Shown piece by piece: positions 14,617-51,503 of a stretch of 64,000 nucleotides of DNA. The stretch comes from Escherichia coli. Lineage in GTDB: Bacteria > Pseudomonadota > Gammaproteobacteria > Enterobacterales > Enterobacteriaceae. The stretch lies in assembly GCF_024700885.2 (NCBI RefSeq), contig NZ_CP117016.1; one strand, 5' to 3'. The stretch's first letter is position 1; every line of letters begins with the position of its first letter. A program made the position numbers and the translations under genes. Below the pieces are notes generated by a model, which did not search any database, was not told the origin of the DNA, and saw only the letters and a list, made by a program, of their open reading frames with translations.

Positions 14617-15386
14617 ATTTTTTACTATTACTGTTAACTACTTGATTATAATACCACCTATGAATTTTATGCGTAACAATACCTGCAATCTGTTTCAAAC
14701 CAGAACACACGCGATTGATTACCAATAAATTGTTCACCGAGAAACTATTTCCCTATTTAAAATTCACTCGTGTACTTCTTATTTATATCTACAGCCCCCT
14801 CTTTACAGCCATATTTGTGATTTATATCACATTTAAATGGTGTTATTTAAGTTGCATCAATAATCCCGAAGGTAATTATTTTCGTCGATTAAAATATACA
14901 TCTTGATTATTTTGTGTATTTATTTTAACCAGTGTTACAACCAACACCATCCCTCAGTAGATATACCTGAGCAGACATTTCTTAAAATTGACGAATAGTT
15001 TCCCTGGAAATTATTATGCTTATTTGAAATTCCCTTTCTGATTATCTCCAGTAATTTTACTAATTTCCAGGCTACACAAAATACAGATCACATAAGAATT
15101 ATCCTATATGTTTTGACCTATCAATTGTTACTCAATGATTTATTACAACTATTAATAATCATAATGTGTCAAAACACTTAAGCATCTTTACAGTCTTAGA
15201 AAGGTGTCGATTAACGAAGGCTACATGGTGAAAAACAGGTTCCTTCAGTGTTACCGAATATTCCGTGGTGGGCTGGAGGGAGATAATTCTTGCTACATCG
15301 AAACTCAGCCCGGTGAGCGGGTTTGACAGTTCCGCACTCACCATTGGGCTAAGGGTTATCAGGTGGGGTTAAGGAAATGGCAATAC

Positions 15387-38227: not shown

Positions 38228-39979
38228 TTGATATCCAATTTTTTCGTGGTGTATATGTCTAATAAAATCTTTACGCATTCCCTACCTATGCGCTATGCCG
38301 ATTTTCCAACGCTGGTTGATGCTTTGGACTACGCCGCTCTGAGTAGCGCCGGAATGAATTTTTATGACAGACGTTGCCAACTTGAAGATCAACTGGAATA
38401 TCAGACGTTAAAAGCGCGTGCCGAAGCTGGTGCGAAGCGGTTGTTATCGCTGAACCTGAAAAAAGGCGATCGCGTGGCGCTGATTGCCGAAACCAGTAGC
38501 GGGTTCGTAGAGGCTTTTTTTTCCTGCCAGTATGCCGGCTTAGTCGCCGTCCCGTTGGCGATTCCAATGGGCGTCGGTCAGCGGGATTCCTGGAGCGCCA
38601 AACTGCAGGGTTTACTGGCAAGTTGCCAGCCCGCAGCCATTATCACTGGTGATGAGTGGTTACCGCTGGTCAATGCCGCGACGCATAACAACAACCCCGA
38701 ATTACATGTTTTAAGCCACGCCTGGTTTAAGACATTACCGGAAGCCGATGTTGCGCTCCAGCGTCCAGTTCCGAACGATATCGCCTACCTCCAGTACACT
38801 TCCGGCAGCACCCGTTTTCCCCGTGGCGTCATTATCACCCATCGCGAAGTGATGGCTAATCTACGTGCTATAAGCCACGATGGCATTAAATTACGCCCTG
38901 GCGACCGCTGCGTCTCCTGGCTGCCTTTCTACCATGATATGGGACTGGTCGGCTTTCTCCTGACCCCCGTCGCCACGCAGCTTTCAGTAGATTATTTGCG
39001 CACTCAGGATTTTGCCATGCGTCCTCTGCAATGGCTTAAATTGATCAGTAAAAATCGCGGCACCGTTTCCGTTGCGCCGCCGTTTGGCTATGAATTGTGC
39101 CAGCGCCGCGTGAATGAAAAAGATCTCGCTGAACTGGATCTTTCCTGCTGGCGCGTCGCTGGTATTGGTGCAGAACCCATCTCCGCAGAACAACTCCATC
39201 AATTCGCTGAATGTTTCCGTCAGGTCAACTTTGACGATAAAACTTTCATGCCGTGCTACGGACTGGCAGAAAATGCGCTGGCTGTCAGCTTCTCTGATGA
39301 AGCTTCCGGGGTTGTGGTTAACGAAGTGGATCGCGACATCCTCGAATATCAGGGCAAAGCCGTCGCGCCGGATGCTGAAACACGCGCCGTATCGACTTTC
39401 GTCAACTGCGGTAAAGCGTTGCCGGAACATGGCATTGAAATCCGCAATGAAGCAGGTATGCCGGTCGCGGAACGTGTGGTAGGCCATATTTGCATCTCCG
39501 GCCCCAGCCTGATGAGCGGTTACTTTGGCGACCAGATTTCACAAGACGAGATTGCCGCGACGGGCTGGTTAGACACCGGCGACCTCGGTTATCTGCTGGA
39601 CGGTTATCTGTATGTCACCGGACGCATTAAAGATCTGATTATTATTCGTGGCCGTAATATCTGGCCGCAGGATATTGAATATATTGCGGAACAGGAACCG
39701 GAAATTCATTCTGGCGATGCGATTGCTTTTGTTACCGCCCAGGAAAAAATCATTTTGCAGATCCAGTGTCGGATCAGCGATGAAGAACGTCGCGGGCAGC
39801 TTATCCACGCGCTGGCAGCACGGATCCAAAGCGAATTTGGCGTGACCGCGGCTATCGATCTGTTGCCGCCCCACAGTATTCCCCGAACGTCCTCCGGCAA
39901 GCCTGCCCGTGCGGAAGCGAAAAAACGTTATCAGAAGGCTTATGCTGCAAGCCTTCATGTGCAGGAATCCCTGGCATGA
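38228..39979 (+). CDS. Fatty acyl-AMP ligase / acyl-ACP synthetase (adenylate-forming enzyme)
   Basis: About 575-583 aa; AMP-binding signature LQYTSGSTRFPRGV; C-terminal lysine region; the true start may be the ATG at 38255. Confidence 0.8.
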   Translation: MISNFFVVYMSNKIFTHSLPMRYADFPTLVDALDYAALSSAGMNFYDRRCQLEDQLEYQTLKARAEAGAKRLLSLNLKKGDRVALIAETSSGFVEAFFSCQYAGLVAVPLAIPMGVGQRDSWSAKLQGLLASCQPAAIITGDEWLPLVNAATHNNNPELHVLSHAWFKTLPEADVALQRPVPNDIAYLQYTSGSTRFPRGVIITHREVMANLRAISHDGIKLRPGDRCVSWLPFYHDMGLVGFLLTPVATQLSVDYLRTQDFAMRPLQWLKLISKNRGTVSVAPPFGYELCQRRVNEKDLAELDLSCWRVAGIGAEPISAEQLHQFAECFRQVNFDDKTFMPCYGLAENALAVSFSDEASGVVVNEVDRDILEYQGKAVAPDAETRAVSTFVNCGKALPEHGIEIRNEAGMPVAERVVGHICISGPSLMSGYFGDQISQDEIAATGWLDTGDLGYLLDGYLYVTGRIKDLIIIRGRNIWPQDIEYIAEQEPEIHSGDAIAFVTAQEKIILQIQCRISDEERRGQLIHALAARIQSEFGVTAAIDLLPPHSIPRTSSGKPARAEAKKRYQKAYAASLHVQESLA

Positions 39980-40890
39980 ATCAAACTGTCGCGGTGACGG
40001 GCGCTACCGGGTTTATCGGTAAATATATTATCGATAACCTGCTCGCCCGCGGCTTTCACGTTCGCGCATTGACGCGTACTGCCCGCGCTCACGTCAATGA
40101 CAATCTCATCTGGGTGCGCGGTTCTCTGGAAGATACTCATTCACTTAGCGAACTGGTTGCCGGAGCCAGCGCGGTGGTCCATTGCGCCGGACAAGTGCGC
40201 GGGCACAAAGAAGAGATTTTTACCCGCTGTAACGTTGACGGCAGCCTGCGACTGATGCAAGCGGCAAAAGAGAGCGGCTTTTGCCAACGTTTTCTGTTTA
40301 TCTCTTCGCTGGCGGCGCGCCATCCCGAACTCTCCTGGTACGCAAATTCCAAACACGTCGCCGAACAACGGCTGACCGCAATGGCTGACGAAATTACGCT
40401 GGGCATTTTTCGCCCGACAGCCGTGTATGGTCCCGGCGATAAAGAGTTAAAACCGCTGTTTGACTGGATGCTGCGCGGCCTACTGCCACGACTTGGTGCG
40501 CCAGATACACAGCTCTCTTTCCTGCACGTCACCGATTTCGCGCAAGCCGTGGGGCAGTGGTTAAGCGCCGAAACTGTACAGACGCAAACCTATGAATTAT
40601 GCGATGGCGTCGCCGGCGGCTATGACTGGCAACGCGTAAGACAGCTTGCCGCCGACGCCCGTTGCGGTTCCGTTCGAATGGTTGGTATTCCTCTGTCGGT
40701 ACTCACCTGCCTTGCGGATATCAGTACTGCGTTGAGTCGCCTGGCAGGTAAAGAACCTATGCTGACCCGCTCGAAAATTCGTGAATTAACCCACGCCGAC
40801 TGGTCGGCAAATAATAACCGTATTTCTGAAGATATTAATTGGTTTCCCGGGATTAGCCTGGAACACGCATTACGCAACGGGCTATTTTGA
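39976..40890 (+). CDS. NAD(P)-dependent epimerase/dehydratase-family reductase (extended SDR), candidate 3-keto reductase
   Basis: 304 aa; Rossmann motif VTGATGFIGKYI; YxxxK catalytic motif (YANSK); start overlaps upstream stop (ATGA). Confidence 0.75.
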   Translation: MNQTVAVTGATGFIGKYIIDNLLARGFHVRALTRTARAHVNDNLIWVRGSLEDTHSLSELVAGASAVVHCAGQVRGHKEEIFTRCNVDGSLRLMQAAKESGFCQRFLFISSLAARHPELSWYANSKHVAEQRLTAMADEITLGIFRPTAVYGPGDKELKPLFDWMLRGLLPRLGAPDTQLSFLHVTDFAQAVGQWLSAETVQTQTYELCDGVAGGYDWQRVRQLAADARCGSVRMVGIPLSVLTCLADISTALSRLAGKEPMLTRSKIRELTHADWSANNNRISEDINWFPGISLEHALRNGLF

Positions 40891-40921
40891 TTGTCTTGTT
40901 TAAAGGTGTGTTAACGTTTCT

Positions 40922-41170
40922 ATGGTAAATCGTGAAATAGTAATGGATTACATCCTTTCCTGTTTACAGGATTTGGTCGAAAACGGTGTGGAAATTAAGC
41001 CCGACAGCGATCTCGTCAACGATCTTGGCCTGGAGTCGATCAAAGTGATGGATCTCTTAATGATGCTGGAAGACAGATTCGATATTTCCATTCCTATTAA
41101 TATTCTGCTGGATGTCAAAACCCCTGCGCAATTAATGGAAACACTACTTCCATGGCTGGAGAATAAATAA
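40922..41170 (+). CDS. Dedicated acyl carrier protein
   Basis: 82 aa acidic protein with the phosphopantetheine attachment motif DLGLESIKVMDL. Confidence 0.75.
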   Translation: MVNREIVMDYILSCLQDLVENGVEIKPDSDLVNDLGLESIKVMDLLMMLEDRFDISIPINILLDVKTPAQLMETLLPWLENK

Positions 41171-42342
41171 TGGGGCTATACGATAAATATGCGCGCCTTG
41201 CTGGCGAGCGACTGCAATTTAGTGACAACGGGTTAACACCGTTTGGCACCTGTATTGATGAAGTGTATTCCGCCACCGAAGGTCGGATTGGCAATAAAAA
41301 AGTGATTCTGGCCGGGACCAATAATTATCTCGGTTTAACCTTTAATCATGATGCCATCGCCGAAGGTCAGGCAGCGTTAGCGGCCCAAGGCACCGGCACC
41401 ACCGGTTCTCGTATGGCAAACGGCAGTTATGCGCCGCATCTGGCGTTAGAGAAAGAGATCGCCGAGTTTTTTAATCGCCCTACCGCTATCGTTTTTTCAA
41501 CCGGTTATACCGCTAATTTAGGCGTCATCAGCGCACTTGCCGACCATAACGCCGTGGTGTTACTGGATGCCGACAGCCACGCCAGTATTTATGACGCCTG
41601 TTCTCTCGGTGGCGCGGAAATTATTCGTTTCCGCCATAACGATGCTAAAGATCTGGAACGGCGCATGGTTCGCCTCGGTGAACGGGCAAAAGAGGCGATT
41701 ATCATCGTTGAAGGCATCTACAGTATGCTCGGTGACGTTGCGCCGCTGGCGGAAATTGTTGATATCAAACGTCGTCTCGGTGGTTATTTGATTGTCGATG
41801 AAGCGCATTCGTTTGGCGTGTTAGGCGCAACGGGGCGCGGACTGGCTGAAGCCGTTGGCGTTGAAGATGATGTGGATATTATCGTTGGTACCTTCAGTAA
41901 AAGTCTGGCCTCGATTGGCGGTTTTGCTGTCGGTTCGGAAGCGATGGAAGTGTTGCGCTACGGCAGCCGCCCGTATATTTTTACCGCCTCTCCTTCTCCG
42001 TCCTGCATTGCGACCGTGCGCTCGTCGTTAAGAACCATTGCCTCACAACCAGAGTTGCGGCAAAAGCTGATGGATAATGCCAACCATCTGTATGACGGTC
42101 TGCAAAAACTGGATTATGAGTTAAGTTCACATATTAGCCCGGTAGTGCCAGTAATAATCGGTTCGAAAGAGGAAGGTTTACGCATCTGGCGCGAGCTTAT
42201 TTCGCTGGGCGTTTATGTGAATCTTATCCTGCCACCTGCCGCGCCTGCAGGCATCACGCTGCTGCGCTGTAGCGTAAACGCTGCCCACAGTCGTGAGCAA
42301 ATTGATGCCATCATTCAAGCGTTCGCTACTCTGAAGCAGTAA
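41170..42342 (+). CDS. PLP-dependent alpha-oxoamine synthase (serine palmitoyltransferase / 8-amino-7-oxononanoate synthase family)
   Basis: 390 aa; PLP-lysine motif GTFSKSLASIGGF and DEAHSFG motif typical of the AOS family; start overlaps the ACP stop. Confidence 0.8.
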   Translation: MGLYDKYARLAGERLQFSDNGLTPFGTCIDEVYSATEGRIGNKKVILAGTNNYLGLTFNHDAIAEGQAALAAQGTGTTGSRMANGSYAPHLALEKEIAEFFNRPTAIVFSTGYTANLGVISALADHNAVVLLDADSHASIYDACSLGGAEIIRFRHNDAKDLERRMVRLGERAKEAIIIVEGIYSMLGDVAPLAEIVDIKRRLGGYLIVDEAHSFGVLGATGRGLAEAVGVEDDVDIIVGTFSKSLASIGGFAVGSEAMEVLRYGSRPYIFTASPSPSCIATVRSSLRTIASQPELRQKLMDNANHLYDGLQKLDYELSSHISPVVPVIIGSKEEGLRIWRELISLGVYVNLILPPAAPAGITLLRCSVNAAHSREQIDAIIQAFATLKQ

Positions 42343-42348
42343 TGTGAG

Positions 42349-42378
42349 CCCGCTGTGGTGTTGCGCCACGGCGGGTTT
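42349..42378 (+). terminator. Rho-independent terminator at the end of the + strand biosynthetic operon, overlapping the 3' end of the convergent permease gene
   Basis: GC-rich inverted repeat cccgctgtgg-N7-ccacggcggg followed by TTT. Confidence 0.55.
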
Positions 42379-43456
42379 AATGTTGTCTGTCATACCAATA
42401 CACCAGGCTCAACGCCACCAGCACAAACGCTACCGGTAAACCGAGCGCGGTAACAGGTGCGCTCAACGCAAATAGCAATCCCAGATTGACCATGATTTGA
42501 TAGCTGATCCAGGTAAGTAAGCCCACGATGACGCCTACAGCGAGACGGCTACCCATCCCAGGCGAACGCGGGGCACTAAAGGTAAACGGCACAGCCAGCA
42601 AAATCATCGCCAGGGTCAGGATGGGTTGTCCCAGTTTTTCCCACAGTGCAAGGCGGTATTCGCTGCTGGGTTGCCCAGTTTCCTGCAAATAATGGATGTA
42701 ATGATTAAGTTGACGGACAGAAAAAGTATTTCCCGGCATCGATAACTCTTCAAGATTCATACTGGTGAAGGCCGATTGCCAGGCAAGATTATCTGATGTT
42801 TCCAGCGTTTCTTTGCCATTCAACCATTTTTTATGATTCACACCATGCAGGATCCATGTTTTGTCGTCTTCAATGGAGGCACTGCGTGCAAAAATGTAGG
42901 ATTCGAGCGAGAGATCGTCGCGATAATGAAATATCTCCACGCCCACAGGCTGGCCCTGCTCGTTCAGCGATTTCACCGTCACAAATTCATTACCGCGCCT
43001 GGCCCAAAGCATATTGCCGGTAATGTCATCGTCCTCCCCCAACGCGGTGGCAGTCGATTTGATTTGCAGCGCCTGTTGCTGCAATGGCGACGCCACCCAC
43101 TCATCTATCGCGCCTAACGAAACAGTCCACAATATCCCGGCAACCAGCGCCACCAGTGCAATACGGAAGATAGAAAACCCAGTGCTGCGAATGGCGGTAA
43201 GCTCACTGTTTTTCGATAACTGCCCCAGGCCAACAATCCCTCCCAATAATGCGATAAACGGCGAAAGTTCGACCAGTGTACGCGGTAAGGTCATCAGCAC
43301 CACCAGCACCGCCTGAGTCCAGCGATAACCGCCCGGGCTGACATCATCCAGTTCGTTAATCAGGTTGAAGGTGGTAAAAAGCGGCAGCAATAGCCCTGCG
43401 GCGGCGGCAAAACCGAGAAAGAGATGACGGATTAAATAGCGACTGAAAACATTCAT
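42377..43456 (-). CDS. LptG-like permease (YjgP/YjgQ family) paralogue
   Basis: About 359 aa from MNVFSRYLIRHLF; six-TM permease architecture with a periplasmic domain, as in LptF/LptG; start overlaps the upstream gene stop (ATGA). Confidence 0.7.
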   Translation of the reverse strand: MNVFSRYLIRHLFLGFAAAAGLLLPLFTTFNLINELDDVSPGGYRWTQAVLVVLMTLPRTLVELSPFIALLGGIVGLGQLSKNSELTAIRSTGFSIFRIALVALVAGILWTVSLGAIDEWVASPLQQQALQIKSTATALGEDDDITGNMLWARRGNEFVTVKSLNEQGQPVGVEIFHYRDDLSLESYIFARSASIEDDKTWILHGVNHKKWLNGKETLETSDNLAWQSAFTSMNLEELSMPGNTFSVRQLNHYIHYLQETGQPSSEYRLALWEKLGQPILTLAMILLAVPFTFSAPRSPGMGSRLAVGVIVGLLTWISYQIMVNLGLLFALSAPVTALGLPVAFVLVALSLVYWYDRQH

Positions 43457-44523
43457 CGGGAAAATTTCTGCAGCAAAGAGAAGTCGCGTGCGACCAGCAT
43501 CAGCAGGCCCATTAGCATGAGTCCGGGTACTAACCACAAACCAGGAATGAGGGGAATCGCGCCGTTAGCCACCAGCGTACGGCAGACGTCGCCGCCATAA
43601 AAAATGGCAATAAACAGCAACGTCAGTGGCAATAATGTTGAAAATCGCCCTTGCCGCGGTTTTACCCGACTTAATGAAATGGCCAGCAGCGCCATCAACA
43701 ATGCTGTCAGGCCACGGCTTTGTCGCCATTGCAGTTCGGCATGATCGGCTGGAAAGACGGAGCGCGCCAGCTCCGTGACCGATTTCGCTTTGCGTTTGAC
43801 GTTAGGGCTTTGATCCAGCGGATTCAGATGTAATTGCAGATTACGGTAGATCTGTTCGTTGTCGTCACGCCCCTGATGATCGAGAAGATAGGCAGTGCCG
43901 TTGTGCAACATAACAGTCGGTTTCTCAGGTGATGGGTCAACCACATCAACCGAACGGGCGCGGAAAATGCGGGTTCGATTGGCAGTAGAAGTATAAATCA
44001 GCGCGTCAGTCAGGCGATTATTATCCTGATCAACCGTCTGCGAAAGGATCATTCGTCCGTTATCGTTAGTGTTAAATTTCTTTGCCCGCAACTGGCGAAC
44101 ATCCAGCTCCGACTGTGACTGTTGCTCCAGTTGATAAATCTGCGCATAAGCCCACGGACGACCATACATCGACAGAAGGGTGACAAAAATACTTAGCGGT
44201 ATCGCCAGATAAAGAACGGCTTTGTACAAGCGTCCCGGACTGCCCCCCGCCGCGGAGATAGCGGTAATTTCCGAGTCGGTATACATTTGCCCTAGCGTCA
44301 CGCCAACTGAAGCATATAGTCCAACAGGTAACAGCATCTCCAGTGCAATCAGCACTTTGTAGAAAACGATATCCAGCACAACATCAAGAGCTAATGTCCC
44401 ATTTGCCGCTTCGGTCAGATAACGCTGTGCGGAGTAGCTGGCGAAAATAAAGATCAGAAACCCGACGATAATCAGCACCAGACGGCGCGTACCACGCATG
44501 ATGTAGTGTTCAACCAGCTTCAT
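43453..44523 (-). CDS. LptF-like permease (YjgP/YjgQ family) paralogue
   Basis: 356 aa; N-terminus MKLVEHYIMRGTRRLVLIIVGFLIF resembles LptF/LptG N-termini; paired with the downstream LptG-like gene. Confidence 0.7.
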   Translation of the reverse strand: MKLVEHYIMRGTRRLVLIIVGFLIFIFASYSAQRYLTEAANGTLALDVVLDIVFYKVLIALEMLLPVGLYASVGVTLGQMYTDSEITAISAAGGSPGRLYKAVLYLAIPLSIFVTLLSMYGRPWAYAQIYQLEQQSQSELDVRQLRAKKFNTNDNGRMILSQTVDQDNNRLTDALIYTSTANRTRIFRARSVDVVDPSPEKPTVMLHNGTAYLLDHQGRDDNEQIYRNLQLHLNPLDQSPNVKRKAKSVTELARSVFPADHAELQWRQSRGLTALLMALLAISLSRVKPRQGRFSTLLPLTLLFIAIFYGGDVCRTLVANGAIPLIPGLWLVPGLMLMGLLMLVARDFSLLQKFSR

Positions 44524-44553
44524 CTCGCTAACGCCCTAAATCCTTTGAATTTT

Positions 44554-45117
44554 TTATTCATTGATCAGTTTCTGCGCCAGCGCAATGACATGATCTACCT
44601 CTTCCGGCGTCAGGCTGCCGTCCTTTGCCCACTGAATTTGCCCGTCTTTATTCAGCACCAGAATGGTTGAACTCTGCTCCGGCAACCGCCAGGCAACGCG
44701 TCCCAGTCCATTGCCGTCAATAACGAATTGCGCCCACGGATAGCGGCGTTTATTTTTTTCGATTTTGCCAACGACAAAATAGCCAGTACCAAAGATGGCA
44801 TCATCGGTGTTCACAATGGTGGTGGGCTGAAAACGATCCTGCGGAAAGTTTGCCGCTTCAACCGCTTTAATTAACAGTGAGTTCTTTTTCTTCGCCGACT
44901 TACGCCCGGCGATATACTGAATAATGCGGACTTTTCCCGCCAGCTGTGTGCTGTTCCACTTTTGGTAGTGAATTTCGTCGTCGCTATTCAGAAGCAACTC
45001 ACCGCCTTCCTGGATATAAACAGGGGTAACCGTTTTGCCAGTGACGAAATTGTGTGCCTGCACACCCGGGGCTAAGAGCATGATAATCAGCGCAATAATC
45101 AAACGAGATGACATCAT
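44554..45117 (-). CDS. Periplasmic protein with signal peptide (possibly YtfJ-like family)
   Basis: 187 aa; cleavable signal MMSSRLIIALIIMLLAPGVQA; family assignment tentative. Confidence 0.5.
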   Translation of the reverse strand: MMSSRLIIALIIMLLAPGVQAHNFVTGKTVTPVYIQEGGELLLNSDDEIHYQKWNSTQLAGKVRIIQYIAGRKSAKKKNSLLIKAVEAANFPQDRFQPTTIVNTDDAIFGTGYFVVGKIEKNKRRYPWAQFVIDGNGLGRVAWRLPEQSSTILVLNKDGQIQWAKDGSLTPEEVDHVIALAQKLINE

Positions 45118-45125
45118 TGCTCCGG

Positions 45126-45950
45126 TTATAGCGGAAAACGCGAAATCAGCAGCTCTAAGCGCTGGCGAATATCGCTATCCAGCGCCACCGGTGCATCATA
45201 CGACTGGCGGTTTTCCATATCATCCGCCACCATGTCGTCGTGTTTATCCCCCATCAGGCCATTAATGGCGGCGAGGAAGCGGGAAATCTGTAACGCTTCT
45301 TTATTTTCAGGATCAAGCGATCTTAAGGTGTCGTAATAAGAAACCTGCTGGCTGATGATTTTTCGCACATCATGAAATTCCCTGCCGGTTAGTCGCGGTT
45401 TGGCAATTATCTCTTTCAGGGTATGCATTTGCTTTTGCCGATAGGCAATAAAACCGCTTACGCTTTCTAACTGGCTATGGCGTAATGAATAGTTCACCAA
45501 CGACCAGACCGGAGAGCTTAAATAAACCCGTAACAGGTTGCCGTAATACGACACAATATTTTTCTTACCGTTACGAAAGCCGTCCTGAAAACGCCCCAAA
45601 AAAACGGTCGTTTTGCCGAATAAAAATCCGGCCTGATGCTTCTTTAAATACAGCCGTTGCGCAAAGCGCAGATGCTTGTAGCGCGCTCGCATGTATTTAT
45701 ACTTTTTGCGCTCGTCTGTCGTCAGTTCATCGCCTTTCGCCTGTTTGCGGATTAAACGCAGTAGCTCCTGACGATTAACACCATCCAGCCAGAATTTCAG
45801 GCATAACGCGTAATTATCATGGATGATTTCGGTGGTACAACTTAGTGCGATAGTCGGCGGCAAACTGACCTGTGCATCAACGACATCATCTTCTTCAATC
45901 GCAACAAATAGACGCTCGCTAGCCTCAAGCGGGAAATATTTTCTCATCAT
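45126..45950 (-). CDS. Hypothetical cytoplasmic protein, basic and Lys/Arg-rich
   Basis: 274-aa ORF tightly packed between the flippase gene and the periplasmic protein gene; no motif recognised by eye. Confidence 0.5.
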   Translation of the reverse strand: MMRKYFPLEASERLFVAIEEDDVVDAQVSLPPTIALSCTTEIIHDNYALCLKFWLDGVNRQELLRLIRKQAKGDELTTDERKKYKYMRARYKHLRFAQRLYLKKHQAGFLFGKTTVFLGRFQDGFRNGKKNIVSYYGNLLRVYLSSPVWSLVNYSLRHSQLESVSGFIAYRQKQMHTLKEIIAKPRLTGREFHDVRKIISQQVSYYDTLRSLDPENKEALQISRFLAAINGLMGDKHDDMVADDMENRQSYDAPVALDSDIRQRLELLISRFPL

Positions 45951-47299
45951 CAGGATTTCTCTCCGGCTGCGTTATAAAGCAAGGAATGGCGCTGAAAAAA
46001 TGCCTTTAAGGTTGGAATTAGCGAGAGCACCACATCCAGACATTGCCCAGCGAAGTAAGCAAATGCAGCCCCCAGCACGCCAAACAGATGACAGAACATG
46101 AACAGCAATACGATGTAGCCGATTGAGGCGATGGTTTGCGCCACGAGAAAAGCACGCTGTTTTCCCGCCATCAATAGCAATGACTCCTGTGGGAAGCCCA
46201 GCATTGAAATCACAATTGCGCCTAGCATCACCTGAATCAGGTCATACGCTTCGAGATACTTAACGCCAAACACCAGCGAAATGAGTGGCTTGCCGACGAT
46301 CAACACCACGAGCGCCACCAGAATACCGATTCCGCCCGCCAGTAAACCGGACTTCACGCCTAACAACCACGGCCTGGTGGTGCGCGGATCTAAACGCATC
46401 ACCTCTGGGTAAAAACTTTTACCCAGCAAACCCGCTGGCGTTCCGGCGGCGTCGAAGAATGTCATGGCGATTTTAAATAACCCGGCGGCAGCGGGTCCTA
46501 ACACGATCCCCACCAACACTGTGCTGCACGAGTTACGCGCCGACCAGATGGAGTGGGCAATGTTGGTTGACCAGACAAAACTCCACGCGCCTTTAATGTG
46601 TCGGGCAGACTCAAACAGATTCAATTTGAAGGCGTTATGGATATTTCTGCGGCGTAATTCGCGCGCGGCAAACCACCAGTACATGGTGCCGCCAACCAGA
46701 TTCGATGCGTACCAGGCAATAACAAAACCCGCAAAACCAAAATCAAAATACCAGGCTACGACGCTCCCCGCTGCGCGCAGAAAAGGTTTCGTCGCCTGCT
46801 GTACAGCAATCAAATCGAAGCGATCTACCGCACGCAGAATGCCGGTCGGCGTGGAGGAAGCCATTGAAGGAATGAGCGTGCAATACAGCGCTGCCAGCCA
46901 AAAGCTTTGGTCATCCAGACCTAATGAATGGGAAAGAAAAGGGAGTAAGGCAATGCCGCCGACAATCGCCACCGCGCCGCTGACGATATCCAGCGAGAAG
47001 GAAAATGAGACGACATTGCGGAATTGCTGCGGATTATTGTTGGTTAATGCTGGTGTTCCGTACTGCACCACCAACTGCCATGTCTGAAACTTAATAAAAT
47101 CGCTGATCGACTTGGCGTACGATTGCACAATCACCAGTACGCCAAACATGGCGGGCGTCATCCCTTTACCGGCACACGAGAGCGCCAACAGACCTAGCAA
47201 GGCGCTCACGACATTACTGGAGCCTAACCAGGCGCTATTGCGAATAATGGTGCGAAACGCGCCATCTGCAAACCAATGTTTGATGTTAAAACCCGCCAA
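45950..47299 (-). CDS. yghQ: MOP-superfamily (Wzx-like) polytopic flippase/exporter
   Basis: 449-aa ORF, highly hydrophobic with many predicted TM helices; I recall the K-12 counterpart as yghQ; start codon uncertain. Confidence 0.65.
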   Translation of the reverse strand: MAGFNIKHWFADGAFRTIIRNSAWLGSSNVVSALLGLLALSCAGKGMTPAMFGVLVIVQSYAKSISDFIKFQTWQLVVQYGTPALTNNNPQQFRNVVSFSFSLDIVSGAVAIVGGIALLPFLSHSLGLDDQSFWLAALYCTLIPSMASSTPTGILRAVDRFDLIAVQQATKPFLRAAGSVVAWYFDFGFAGFVIAWYASNLVGGTMYWWFAARELRRRNIHNAFKLNLFESARHIKGAWSFVWSTNIAHSIWSARNSCSTVLVGIVLGPAAAGLFKIAMTFFDAAGTPAGLLGKSFYPEVMRLDPRTTRPWLLGVKSGLLAGGIGILVALVVLIVGKPLISLVFGVKYLEAYDLIQVMLGAIVISMLGFPQESLLLMAGKQRAFLVAQTIASIGYIVLLFMFCHLFGVLGAAFAYFAGQCLDVVLSLIPTLKAFFQRHSLLYNAAGEKS

Positions 47300-47344
47300 T
47301 TCAGCCTGACCTTATCGTTGATAGTAAAAAGTATCCCGCCAGCC

Positions 47345-48103
47345 TTAAGTTAAACTTCGGCGGTCAGAAACGATGGCAACCAGAGAAACCGCCTTCTGTG
47401 CCTGTTCCAGCACTTCGCTGTAGGGCGCTCTGGAATCAATCTCAAGAATTTTTGTGCCGTTATAGCCAATCGTCGACATGACGCCGATTTTGTCCTGCAG
47501 CTCGGCATAGTCATGGTCAGGCTTGCGGGAGATGGCAGTATCAATATCAATCCCCAAACGAATGATTAATTCAGGACGGTATTGCGCCATTTTTTGGTAT
47601 AAACGCCGTTCGCGCTGCGCCAGAAACATGCTGATTTTCCCGGTCGCACGTTCGACGCCGATCCCCGGTCCGTCATAATAAAAGCCCGAAATTTCAGCCT
47701 GCGGGAAGCGATCGCTGACCACCAGAACGCCACTTTGCGCCAGTCGCTGAACCTTGCGTAGATTCGCCATTCTTCGCAGCGAGAAGCAGTACATAATCAC
47801 CGCCGCCCATAGCGCTGGAGATTTGGTTTTCATGCTTTGGGTTTTCGAGGATTTGGCCGCCAGTCGCCGTTCGAGCCAGACGCCAACCAACGGCAATCGT
47901 TTGATTGTGTCGCCGTCTTCGCCCGAGAGCAGCCCCAGATAGCGCCGCTCGGTTTGCCAGTGTTGTTGCAGCGATTTCACCAGGTCGGTGGTCAGTGTGG
48001 ATTTACCGGTGCCATCACACCCGACCACCGCAATCAGCCCCGGAATGTAGTTGGGCTGCGGCACGGTTGTACTATTAACAGTTTGTGTTTGTAGTGCATC
48101 CAT
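47345..48103 (-). CDS. yghR: P-loop NTPase, kinase-like (YghR/S/T family)
   Basis: 252 aa; N-proximal Walker A VVGCDGTGKST; DRF motif; no ABC signature motif seen. Confidence 0.7.
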   Translation of the reverse strand: MDALQTQTVNSTTVPQPNYIPGLIAVVGCDGTGKSTLTTDLVKSLQQHWQTERRYLGLLSGEDGDTIKRLPLVGVWLERRLAAKSSKTQSMKTKSPALWAAVIMYCFSLRRMANLRKVQRLAQSGVLVVSDRFPQAEISGFYYDGPGIGVERATGKISMFLAQRERRLYQKMAQYRPELIIRLGIDIDTAISRKPDHDYAELQDKIGVMSTIGYNGTKILEIDSRAPYSEVLEQAQKAVSLVAIVSDRRSLT

Positions 48104-48134
48104 TCGTTAAATCATCCCCTATCCATTTTGGTGA

Positions 48135-48848
48135 TCAGGAAAGCACGGCGTGAATTGCGCGTAGTGACGCTTGCATAATTTCATCGGCTGGTTGCCGACC
48201 ATCCAGTTCAAGGATCTTTGCGCCATTGAATGTCAGTTGCGGCGTAACGGCGATTTTTTCCTGTAACGCTGCCAGTTGGTGGTCAGGTTTACGCGAAAAC
48301 GCGGTTTGTTCATCAATGCCAAGACGAATCAACAATACGGGCAAATAAGACGCCATCCATTGGTACAGCTTCAGCTCGCGCTGCCTTAACATTTTTATCC
48401 AACCGTTACCGCCCGTGGTTTTTGCCAATTGCGGGCCATCAAAGCGAAAACCCGGCACTTCAACCTGCGGGTAGCGGTCGGTGATGAGCAGATAGCCTTG
48501 CTGGCTTTTACACAACATTTTGCGAAACTTATACGCCCGCCAGCAGGAAAGCAGATAGATAACCAGCGCAGTAATATTGCCAGGCGGTGTTGAGGGCTTT
48601 TCGTGCACATGTGCCGCTTTACTTCGCAGATAACGCCCAAAAGGTGCGCCAATAACAGGGAGCTGTGAAATCCATTCGCCAATTCGCCCGGACGATTGCC
48701 CGAGATAAATGTGTTCTGTTGGCATTCTTGCTGCCAGTTCATTTACCAGGCTTGCCGTGAGGGTCGATTTACCTGAACCATCACATCCTACAATGGCAAT
48801 AACACGCACTGGCGTGGAATTAATTATTGACATATTACGTTGATTCAC
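48135..48848 (-). CDS. yghS: P-loop NTPase, kinase-like (YghR/S/T family paralogue)
   Basis: 237 aa; Walker A IVGCDGSGKST; DRYP motif; same architecture as yghR. Confidence 0.7.
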   Translation of the reverse strand: MNQRNMSIINSTPVRVIAIVGCDGSGKSTLTASLVNELAARMPTEHIYLGQSSGRIGEWISQLPVIGAPFGRYLRSKAAHVHEKPSTPPGNITALVIYLLSCWRAYKFRKMLCKSQQGYLLITDRYPQVEVPGFRFDGPQLAKTTGGNGWIKMLRQRELKLYQWMASYLPVLLIRLGIDEQTAFSRKPDHQLAALQEKIAVTPQLTFNGAKILELDGRQPADEIMQASLRAIHAVLS

Positions 48849-49021
48849 GAAAAACCCGGCAGCAAATAATGTATTGAATATTACGTGGTCCGTGCTCAGA
48901 ATATCCGTTCAACCTTATTGTGACAATGGTTAATTGTGACATTGACCTGAATTACGCTTTCATAAAAACATATTAACCAAATAAATATTTTTAATGGATA
49001 TTCAAATTAAAGGATATATTC

Positions 49022-49714
49022 ATGCAGTCAATAACACCTCCATTAATTGCCGTTATTGGTAGCGATGGTTCAGGCAAGTCAACGGTGTGTGAACATCTCA
49101 TTACCGTTGTCGAAAAATATGGTGCTGCCGAAAGAGTTCATTTAGGAAAACAAGCCGGAAATGTCGGTCGTGCAGTGACAAAATTACCGTTGATGGGAAA
49201 ATCCTTACATAAAACAATTGAACGAAATCAGGTGAAAACAGCAAAAAAATTGCCTGGCCCTGTTCCGGCGCTGGTAATTACAGCGTTTGTCGCCCGTCGC
49301 TTACTGCGCTTTCGTCATATGCTTGCCTGTCGTCGTCGCGGGTTAATTGTTCTAACCGACCGTTATCCTCAGGACCAAATTCCTGGCGCTTACGATGGTA
49401 CAGTGTTCCCACCTAACGTTGAAGGCGGCCGGTTTGTCTCATGGCTGGCAAGCCAGGAACGTAAAGCATTTCACTGGATGGCGAGCCATAAGCCTGATCT
49501 GGTCATCAAACTCAATGTTGACCTTGAAGTTGCCTGCGCGCGTAAACCCGACCATAAACGGGAATCGCTGGCGAGGAAGATTGCAATAACGCCACAGTTA
49601 ACCTTTGGTGGTGCACAACTGGTTGATATCGATGCCAATCAGCCACTGGAAAAGGTGCTGGTTGATGCAGAAAAAGCGATTACGGATTTTATGACCGCGC
49701 GTGGTTATCACTAG
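49022..49714 (+). CDS. yghT: P-loop NTPase, kinase-like (YghR/S/T family paralogue)
   Basis: 230 aa; Walker [16 protein letters not shown] motif; divergent from yghS. Confidence 0.7.
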
Positions 49715-49762: not shown

Positions 49763-51262
49763 TTAAATCAACTGCAATGCTATCCAGTACAACCCACCAG
49801 ACAGAAAAATCGCCGCTGGTAAAGTAAACACCCACGCCATCAGGATGCTGGTTACCGTTTTACGCTGTAACCCACCGCCGTCCACCACCATCGTCCCTGC
49901 TACCGCAGATGAGAGGACGTGTGTTGTGGAAACAGGCATCCCAATATAACTGGCAAGGCCGATAGATACCGCCGCCGTCATCTGCGCCGCCATCCCTTGC
50001 GCATACGTCATGCCGCGCTTACCAATCTTCTCACCGATGGTCATCGCTACACGACGCCAGCCAATCATGGTGCCAATGCCGAGCGCCAGTGCTACCGCCA
50101 TGATGATCCACACCGGAGCGTACTCAATGGTGCTTAACATATCGCTGCGCAATTTTTTCAGCAGGTTCTGATCTTCTTTACTGACACCTGGCAGTTTCGC
50201 CAGCTTCGCAGAGGTATCAGAGATGCACAGCATAATGCGGCGCAGCTGGCTGCGCTGACTCACGCTTAACGGCTCGTAGCTTTCCATATTACCTGGCAAC
50301 ATCGTTTTAACGCGCGCAATCGCATCAAAGGTATTTGCCGGATGACAATGAAACTCCGTTACTTGCGTGCCATCAGTCGATGCCGCAGGCAATGGAGGTT
50401 CCATCGCAATCAACTTCTGCGGCAGTTCAGGATGCTGTTGCAGATAGTGTTCAAAGTTGGTGACGGCATCGCGAGTACGGGTAATTTCATAGCCGGACGC
50501 ATTCATATTGACGACGAAACCAGCAGGGGCAATCCCCACCAGTACCAACATCACCAGGCCGATCCCTTTCTGCCCGTCGTTCGCGCCGTGCGAAAACGCC
50601 ACGCCCGCAGCGGAAACAATCAGCGCAATACGCGTCCAGAATGGTGGCTTACGTTTGCCTTTTTTCTTTTTGCGATCTTCCGGAATGCGGTGAATACGGT
50701 CACGCTTTTTCGTCCCGCTCCAGTAGCGGCGCAGCAGGAATATCAGGCCTCCCGCAATGACCAGGCCGACGATAGGGGAAACAATCAGCGAGGAGAAAAT
50801 TTTGGTCACTTCACGCAGGTTTAACGCATCCATCACCGATGAGCCGGTTAACAGCGCGTTGGTTAAACCGATGCCGATAATCGCACCAATCAAGGTATGC
50901 GAACTGGAGGCCGGTAAACCAAAGAACCACGTTCCCAGGTTCCAGATAATCGCCGCCAGCAGCATGGAAAAGACCATCGCCAGGCCGTGAGTTGACCCCA
51001 TATTCAGCAACAAATCGGTTGGCAACATATGGACAATGGCATAGGCAACGCTAAGTCCGCCTAGCAATACGCCAAAAAAGTTAAAAAATGCCGCCATCAC
51101 CACGGCAAGCTGTGGCTGCATGGCACGAGTATAAATAACGGTTGCCACCGCATTCGCCGTGTCATGAAAACCATTGATTGCTTCGTAGAACAACACAAAT
51201 GCCAGAGCAAGTAATAACAAAAGCCCTGTGTATATATCAAGGCCAACAAATAAATTTAGCAT
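49763..51262 (-). CDS. pitB: Low-affinity inorganic phosphate transporter (PiT family)
   Basis: 499 aa polytopic PHO4-family transporter; position next to gss. Confidence 0.88.
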
Positions 51263-51503
51263 ATATTAGATTACGCCATTTTGAATTTACGAACGGACGC
51301 ATTATCAGTGACTTTAACGGCGTGGGCAAAGTGAAATATCATTTTTTAACGATAAAAAGAGTGTTATTTCTTGTGTATCAGATAATAAGCATTCATTCAA
51401 AACCTTTAGAAATAATCAAAACACAGGTATTCCACTGGTTAATACATTCACATATGAAATGAATAAATATTGGAATATATAAATATTGAATATTTTGATT
51501 AAT

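Follow-up and report, generated by a model that had tools for sequence, protein, structure and literature searches.

Is a short word that is repeated between two divergently transcribed genes the binding site of a regulator which both genes share, or does the repetition have another origin? This question is raised by the spacer between yghS and yghT in a 64,000-nucleotide stretch of DNA (the whole of it is called the window here), where the word TTGTGACA is found twice on the plus strand, as exact matches at 48918..48925 (copy 1) and at 48934..48941 (copy 2). A sequence-only reading had reported these copies, and they are indeed present as ttgtgacaatggttaattgtgacattgacc, 16 bp apart from start to start; it had also placed the element within the regulatory core of a divergent gene pair, which agrees with its position in the spacer.

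Comparison of the open reading frames with annotation assigns the window to the chromosome of E. coli and the locus to yghS/yghT. The annotation was taken from a RefSeq genome with 100% identity over a 501-bp query; its collinearity with the window covers 24 kb to at least 58 kb. The intergenic spacer (48849-49021, 173 bp) lies between the divergent starts of yghS (minus strand, GTG start at 48848) and yghT (plus strand, ATG start at 49022, with pitB downstream), and its G+C content is 33.5%, compared with roughly 50% in the flanking genes. Strains that have the locus intact show six genes closely packed behind yghS in the same direction. According to the ORFs, the RefSeq annotation of the collinear genome and Pfam, the seven co-directional genes (42377..48848, minus strand) are arranged in the order yghS, yghR, yghQ (Wzx-like), a hypothetical gene, a YtfJ-family gene, an lptF-like gene and an lptG-like gene. 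This cluster, with its LptF/LptG paralogues, adjoins genes for serine palmitoyltransferase (spt), ACP and an acyl-AMP ligase. The divergent yghS/yghT pair is present in Escherichia, Citrobacter, Hafnia, Pseudocitrobacter, Shimwellia, Sodalis, Pluralibacter, Erwinia, Klebsiella, Serratia and Mangrovibacter, and the length of the spacer is steady, 171-173 bp, in Escherichia, Citrobacter, Hafnia and the locus L026.

In the available literature the products of yghS and yghT are called uncharacterised or putative ATP-binding proteins, and no regulatory study of the two genes was found there; the other papers that mention yghS deal only with coding mutations or with a knockout screen. yghS is listed as H-NS-bound and is induced 3.1-fold by overproduction of SlyA (PMC5797941), both of which fit the 33.5% G+C of the spacer. 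A gSELEX peak of FlhDC is located at the spacer, with a marginal value of 11 against a cutoff of 10 (PMC9962212); the box derived from this peak by MEME lies inside the yghT coding sequence and is therefore unrelated to the repeat, so that FlhDC was rejected as its regulator. Searching the literature for the motif words TTGTGACA, TGTCACAA and ATTGTGACAAT returned essentially nothing other than primer and siRNA matches, none of them useful. The Rfam search gave no family at its gathering score, the two matches being at chance level (19-22 bits against gathering scores of 70-91).

The repeat within E. coli and across genera

The repetition can be extended to two 12-mers, ATTGTGACAATG and ATTGTGACATTG, which are identical at 11 of 12 positions with a period of 16 bp. 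As a word, TTGTGACA is not enriched: it occurs twice in the 64-kb window, where shuffles lead one to expect 2.34 occurrences. When the spacer itself is shuffled with its dinucleotides preserved, an exact direct repeat of at least 9 bp appears in 14% of the shuffles (4% if the copies have to be within 30 bp). Pairs of 12-mers with no more than one mismatch appear in 7.5% (1.9% within 30 bp). These figures correspond to p = 0.02-0.14 within one spacer. The window contains six comparable close 12-mer repeats, the TTGTGACA pair included; two of the five others share the 16-bp period, one of these being located near pitB. TRF called no tandem array at the repeat. The repetition of TTGTGACA is within chance expectation. 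A further close repeat is present inside the same yghS/yghT spacer.

The repeat unit is nearly its own reverse complement (ATTGT-G-ACAAT), and owing to this near self-complementarity the same bases can also be read as an inverted repeat. Over the same 23 bases TGTGACAAT and ATTGTGACA match at 8 of 9 positions, with a perfect core, ACAAT-N5-ATTGT. The description of the arrangement as direct rather than inverted is therefore right in so far as the direct copies exist, and incomplete in so far as the near-palindromic unit also yields the inverted repeat.

A 50-bp segment with the repeat at its centre is carried by 4684 complete E. coli genomes, 4406 of which have it in identical form; the flanking 50-mers are identical in 1504 of 4669 and 2671 of 4687 genomes. 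This contrast among 50-bp segments (94% versus 32% and 57%) does not single out the repeat. A single tri-allelic SNP at 48863 largely accounts for the low figure of the left flank, polymorphism towards yghT also contributes, and the yghS-proximal half of the spacer varies hardly at all over its whole length, so that within-species data cannot discriminate the repeat from its surroundings. Three strains without a full-length identical segment were sampled: two of them have a G-to-A change at 48907, which is in the promoter spacer described below and not in the repeat, and in the third an IS1 has inserted immediately behind copy 2.

Comparison between species and genera distinguishes the two copies clearly. 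Conservation was scored as the weighted identity to the E. coli base in a nine-species alignment. Copy 1 reaches 0.84, and across 6-7 genera its bases rank with the best-conserved non-coding ones in the spacer. The sequence-only reading had named absence of the repeat from orthologous loci as evidence against its own proposal; there the repeat is indeed not kept, and copy 2, at 0.61, equals the background given by the mean of the whole spacer (0.63). Neither copy is conserved uniformly. The core GTGACAAT at 48920-48927 has a score of 0.94 and the TT of copy 1 a score of 0.54, and the conserved part of copy 2 is contained in TAATTGT (48931-48937; 0.83) and not in GACA (48938-48941; 0.40). The core GTGACAAT is retained in Escherichia, Citrobacter, Hafnia, Pseudocitrobacter, Shimwellia and Sodalis. 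Copy 2 reads TTGTGGCA in E. albertii and E. whittamii, TTGTCGTT in C. freundii and C. farmeri, TTAGCGTT in C. amalonaticus, TTGTGGCT in Hafnia, ATGTCAGC in Pseudocitrobacter and TTGTGACT in Shimwellia, and it is unrecognisable in Sodalis. The two copies agree with each other fully in E. coli (8/8), at 7/8 positions in both E. albertii and E. whittamii (the single G/A difference at 48939 parts these two from E. coli), and at fewer in Shimwellia (5/8), Pseudocitrobacter (3/8), Pluralibacter and Erwinia (2/8 each); copy 2 of Citrobacter and Hafnia agrees with TTGTGACA at 3-6 of 8 positions. Judging by these alignments, the presence of both copies is confined to E. coli and its closest relatives, and it is copy 1 that has been kept in evolution.

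Putative promoters of yghS and yghT

As the position and the pattern of the conserved bases suggest, the conserved and functional element under the repeat is in all likelihood a core sigma-70 promoter that serves yghS, designated P1 here. Read in the direction of yghS, copy 1 is ATTGTCACAA and includes TTGTCA (48926-48921), the reverse complement of the TGACAA in copy 1. This hexamer is the predicted -35 element (48921..48926, minus strand; conservation 0.92). It is followed by a 17-bp spacer (48904..48920; 0.59), the sequence of which varies and the length of which is kept (16 bp in Shimwellia), and by the predicted -10 element TATTCT (48898..48903; 0.97), which lies inside the invariant block CAGAATAT. 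The consensus hexamers of sigma-70 promoters are TTGACA and TATAAT, 17 ± 1 bp apart. TTGTCA-17-TATTCT agrees with them at 9 of 12 positions (5/6 in the -35 and 4/6 in the -10 element), and TATTCT has the A in position 2 and the T in position 6 of the -10 hexamer.

With hexamer frequencies from published compilations, P1 has a score of 11.74 and is the best minus-strand candidate in the E. coli spacer; in a consensus scan of 48700-49150 it was the only sigma-70-like site. On the one hand, 2.2 promoter-like sites are expected by chance in that scan and a score of at least 11.74 is reached in 13.5% of the shuffled spacers, which makes the sequence match weak when it is taken alone. On the other hand, the best sequence match coincides with the best conservation signature, and it is this coincidence, not the score by itself, that argues for P1. 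Of the 435 possible 6-(16-18)-6 placements in the spacer, the best 8 are all located at P1. The homologous site ranks first among the minus-strand candidates of E. whittamii, two Pseudocitrobacter species, Shimwellia (with its 16-bp spacer), L026 and Sodalis, and the same hexamers with 17-bp spacing were recognised by eye in E. albertii, C. freundii and C. farmeri, C. amalonaticus and Hafnia. In Pluralibacter the -10 block is kept and there is no -35 element. Sodalis retains the -35 and -10 elements although both copy 2 and the ACAAT-N5-ATTGT dyad are gone, which favours a promoter over any two-site model.

From the hexamers, their spacing and their conservation we infer that P1 is active in vivo. 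It would be recognised by the RNA polymerase holoenzyme, with initiation near 48891 (48889-48893), at about 3,133,998-3,134,002 in U00096.3, which would give a leader of about 42 nt up to the GTG at 48848, and the transcript would read into yghS, yghR, yghQ and the four further co-directional genes. P1, the presumed driver of all seven genes, probably serves an operon of about 6.5 kb. The available supplements of genome-wide E. coli maps of transcription start sites and transcript boundaries have no entry for yghS, for yghT or for the expected coordinates. In the predicted leader of yghS there is another block, TTG(A/T)ATATTA (48874..48883; conservation 0.88), which may represent an alternative -10 element or a second promoter; in Pseudocitrobacter a candidate P2, TTCTGA-17-TACAAT, has a score of 9.3.

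Copy 2 would be situated just upstream of the P1 -35 element, at about -40 to -50, and the completion of the second TTGTGACA word in E. coli hinges on a few lineage-specific bases. Therefore the direct repeat looks like a by-product and not like a functional unit. The repeat is thus real as a sequence and mostly ordinary as biology, its first copy being best explained as the -35 element of an unannotated yghS promoter of a conventional kind. Nevertheless, the conservation around copy 1 goes beyond the hexamer, as it covers GTGACAAT plus TAATTGT, about 10 bp upstream of the -35 element; to judge from the alignment, a bare -35 element does not fully explain it.

On the other side of the spacer, the predicted -10 element of yghT is TATTTT (48986..48991, plus strand; conservation 0.82), with a start site expected at about 48998. 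The bases TATTT (48986-48990) do not vary among the 12 sequences that make up alignment A1. At this position TTGAGG-17-TATTTT is present in Shimwellia, Pluralibacter and Erwinia, compared with a poor -35 element (TAAAAA) in E. coli. The lack of a recognisable -35 element suggests that the E. coli yghT promoter is weak or activator-dependent. A look-alike of a -35 element, TTGACC (48942..48947, plus strand), abuts copy 2; its conservation is 0.36 and it has no usable -10 element at 16-18 bp, so it was rejected as the -35 element of yghT and is probably not functional.

Alternative readings of the conserved bases

The proposal from which the analysis started, that tandem TTGTGACA sites 16 bp apart bind a regulator of both divergent genes, for example a response regulator, is very improbable after the cross-genus comparison. 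The 8-9-bp repeat is perfect in E. coli, it is unchanged in the 4406 identical genomes mentioned above, and Shimwellia has GTGAC twice at the same 16-bp spacing. However, the identity between the copies drops outside E. coli from 7/8 down to 2/8, the GACA of copy 2 and the TT of copy 1 are poorly conserved, the repetition is within chance, and high identity within E. coli is common to the whole yghS-proximal half. Tandem sites with a 16-bp period, which corresponds to some 1.5 helical turns, would lie on opposite faces of the DNA; factors of the OmpR/PhoB type have tandem sites at 10-11 bp, unlike those found here. The proposal did not hold, since orthologous loci lack the repeat; for what is conserved in copy 1, the yghS -35 element is the simpler explanation; a regulator site that overlaps the -35 element is possible as a dyad rather than as a direct repeat. 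To our knowledge, none of the consensuses of ArcA, RcsAB, CusR, the LacI half-site, SlyA, LexA, MarA, RutR, UvrY or Fis/IHF fits the repeat beyond a half-site. A relic of a 16-bp tandem duplication, or a coincidence, in which neither copy is functional, is also very improbable. It would account for the adjacent 16-bp units being identical at 11 of 16 positions, for the five other comparable close repeats in the window, two of them with a 16-bp period, and for the unremarkable shuffle p-values; yet copy 1 is strongly conserved across 6-7 genera and must be under constraint, and because the spacer keeps its length of 171-173 bp in four genera, any duplication would have to be ancient. TRF finds no array either. 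Binding of CRP to one or both TGTGA half-sites, which would make the divergent promoters cAMP-dependent, can be given hardly any credence. The pentamers at 48919-23 and 48935-39 are perfect, and the first candidate is centred at 48926.5, about -71.5 from the predicted yghT start site, but the partner half-sites TTAAT and CCTGA match at only 2/5 each. The sequence-only reading had not been convinced by CRP either, and rightly so: both candidates agree with TGTGA-N6-TCACA at 7 of 10 positions, which is chance frequency (the window has 193 matches of this quality, where 222 are expected), the second TGTGA is not conserved, being replaced by TGTGG, TGTCG or TAGCG among E. albertii, Citrobacter and Hafnia, and a true CRP consensus site is found elsewhere in the window (14816-14831). 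A PhoB site has practically no probability. It is brought to mind by the minus strand, which reads TGTCAC...TGTCAC, TGTCA being the core of the Pho-box heptamer, and by the genes on the downstream side of yghT, where pitB encodes a phosphate transporter; with a few exceptions the other genera examined also have phosphate-related genes there, among them one for a PstS-like binding protein (in Shimwellia, at a distance of about 2.9 kb) and one for a class-B acid phosphatase (at about 2 kb in the Erwinia locus L010, adjacent in L027). However, a Pho box consists of two 7-bp direct repeats (CTGTCAT) with 11-bp periodicity, and here the period is 16 bp, neither TGTCAC has a second heptamer at a distance of 11 bp, copy 2 lacks conservation, and the spacer has no match to CTGTCATNNNNCTGTCAY within 3 mismatches.

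The alternative that deserves more weight, although it is itself not likely, is a palindromic operator for a dimeric helix-turn-helix regulator that overlaps the yghS -35 element. The candidate operator is the dyad ACAAT-N5-ATTGT at 48923..48937. Its centre at 48930 is about -39 from the predicted yghS start site and about -68 from that of yghT; a regulator bound there could occlude yghS or act as a class II activator from about -39, and an influence on yghT from about -68 is possible. Such an operator is compatible with P1 as the promoter. In its favour, what has survived of the two copies forms complementary halves (GTGACAAT, 0.94, and TAATTGT, 0.83), and in the nine species the arms are conserved at 0.90 and 0.83 and the N5 at only 0.57. 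Perfect arms enclose four different spacers, GGTTA, GCCTA, GGGTA and GACTA, among E. coli, E. albertii, C. freundii and Hafnia, and the pair in Pseudocitrobacter, TGACA-N9-TGTCA, is inverted and not direct. However, one arm is largely the -35 element itself, so its conservation needs no second explanation; the arms match at 4/5 in Pseudocitrobacter, Shimwellia and L026 and at 3/5 in C. amalonaticus, and in Sodalis the dyad is absent and the promoter hexamers are kept. The dyad is also single in the window, a search with one mismatch giving 1 site against 2.95 expected. ORFs, annotation and Pfam reveal no regulator gene in the conserved cluster, and a cognate factor for the dyad was not found. 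Two candidates were rejected: YghO, formerly annotated as a putative regulator, has no Pfam or HTH match, and GlcC, a GntR-family protein encoded about 13 kb away, has GGT-N3-ACC boxes in its own spacer, TTGTNACAA being found 25 times in the window against 30 expected. A more specific version, in which the dyad is the operator of a regulator that switches on a cryptic, H-NS-silenced island for lipid synthesis and export, co-ordinated with yghT, is rather unlikely.

Relation to known regulatory regions

The outcome is a concrete promoter model for yghS and yghT, the practical value of which is modest. Of more general use is the trap that it exposes: a near-palindromic word that contains a -35-like hexamer can mimic a direct-repeat regulator site as long as one genome is inspected, and comparison across genera then reveals constraint on the promoter hexamer only, perhaps also on the dyad. 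The putative operator reading of the dyad is the only one with some novelty, and if the operator were real it would provide a handle on the induction of a silent lipid-related island.

Several known systems share single traits with this spacer. With CRP sites it has perfect TGTGA pentamers in common, but there is no inverted partner and the second pentamer is not conserved. The Pho box and other repeats of the OmpR/PhoB family resemble it in being direct repeats with TGTCA on the yghS strand, at or upstream of the -35 element, and differ from it in their period, which is 11 bp in the Pho box instead of 16 bp, and in that the second repeat is not conserved here. The AT-rich promoter regions that are silenced by H-NS and respond to SlyA are similar in base composition, and yghS is both H-NS-bound and SlyA-induced; this evidence concerns the whole region and not the TTGTGACA repeat, which is unlike the SlyA consensus TTAGCAAGCTAA.

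Operators that overlap a -35 element, such as those of dimeric HTH repressors or of class II activators centred near -41.5, resemble it in the 15-bp dyad with conserved 5-bp arms, a variable spacer and a centre at about -39. They differ in that the present dyad is without a second site in the window and is lost in Sodalis, where the promoter persists. Compared with a canonical divergent pair of sigma-70 promoters, yghT is without a recognisable -35 element in E. coli and the conservation extends beyond the yghS -35 element. Nonetheless, the region has the back-to-back arrangement of such a pair, with the opposite -10 element (TATTTT, for yghT) about 85 bp away, and the putative yghS promoter has the mark of a canonical sigma-70 promoter, with hexamers that are conserved across genera around a spacer that is variable in sequence and fixed in length.

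Variation within the yghS/yghT spacer

Within the predicted yghS leader, the block TTG(A/T)ATATTA (48874-48883) lies between the predicted start of P1, the putative sigma-70 promoter of yghS, and the yghS start codon, and it is strongly conserved (0.88). This block could serve as an alternative -10 element (minus-strand TAATAT), belong to a second promoter or be a leader element; in Pseudocitrobacter the candidate for such a second promoter is TTCTGA-17-TACAAT. The same predicted leader carries a tri-allelic SNP (C/T/A) at position 48863. When E. coli genomes are compared across the population, the left flank seems poorly conserved, and this SNP explains most of that effect.

In E. coli PCP06171 (locus L015), an IS1 is inserted immediately past copy 2 of the 8-mer direct repeat (48934-48941), at the equivalent of 48944/48945, and stands between yghT and the conserved yghS promoter block. 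This locus is a natural 'mutant' of the yghS/yghT spacer.

The spacer also contains a second direct repeat with a 16-bp period, TTAATGGATAT / TTAAAGGATAT (48991-49001 and 49007-49017), which overlaps the Shine-Dalgarno region of yghT and is located in a stretch that is polymorphic between E. coli strains. An imperfect inverted repeat of 14 nt, GAATATCCGTTCAA / TTTAATGGATATTC (48899-48912 and 48990-49003), is 86% complementary with 77 nt between its arms; it pairs the yghS -10 region with bases that directly follow the predicted yghT -10. Outside the spacer, the direct repeat ATAAATATTGGA / ATAAATATTGAA upstream of pitB (51463-51490) likewise has a 16-bp period, and the region that holds it is very AT-rich (29-33% G+C). 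The only perfect CRP consensus core (0 mismatches) within the 64-kb window is TGTGATTTATATCACA at 14816-14831, in a part where the genome that served as annotation reference lacks collinearity with the window.

The 262-bp contig L012, which belongs to a Nocardioides malaquae assembly, has a coverage of 0.79 and 99% protein-level identity to E. coli yghT, and it is almost certainly a contaminant there. The window and NZ_CP117013.1 (strain MLI114) differ in length by about 5 kb somewhere in 22000-24000, near sslE and the T2SS-beta genes, and are otherwise collinear.

Phosphate-related genes downstream of yghT

In most of the genera examined, a phosphate-related gene is found downstream of yghT, although its identity varies and the adjacency is not constant. 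This gene is pitB in Escherichia (49763-51262 in the window), Citrobacter, Hafnia and Pseudocitrobacter; in Shimwellia a PstS-like binding protein is encoded about 2.9 kb from yghT (L007, 7622-8662). The two Erwinia-like loci carry a class-B acid phosphatase gene, which is about 2 kb from yghT in one (L010, 6706-7425) and adjacent to it in the other (L027, 2010-2729). Sodalis, Klebsiella, Serratia and Mangrovibacter are exceptions to this pattern.

A putative lipid gene island beside yghS

On the other side of the spacer, within 38228-48848, yghS-yghR-yghQ are followed in this strain by a hypothetical gene, a YtfJ-family gene and lptF/lptG paralogues. Adjoining this cluster are spt (serine palmitoyltransferase), the genes for an acyl carrier protein (ACP), an NAD-epimerase-family protein and a fatty-acyl-AMP ligase, and yghO. 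The whole region looks like an island for the synthesis and export of a sphingolipid- or ceramide-like lipid. The spt and ACP genes directly adjoin yghT in Klebsiella and Serratia, and in Mangrovibacter an spt-type aminotransferase gene adjoins yghT, the locus sequence stopping ahead of any ACP gene. These adjacencies suggest that the P-loop 'kinases' YghR, YghS and YghT are members of the lipid pathway. In K-12, the island is cut off at an IS5.
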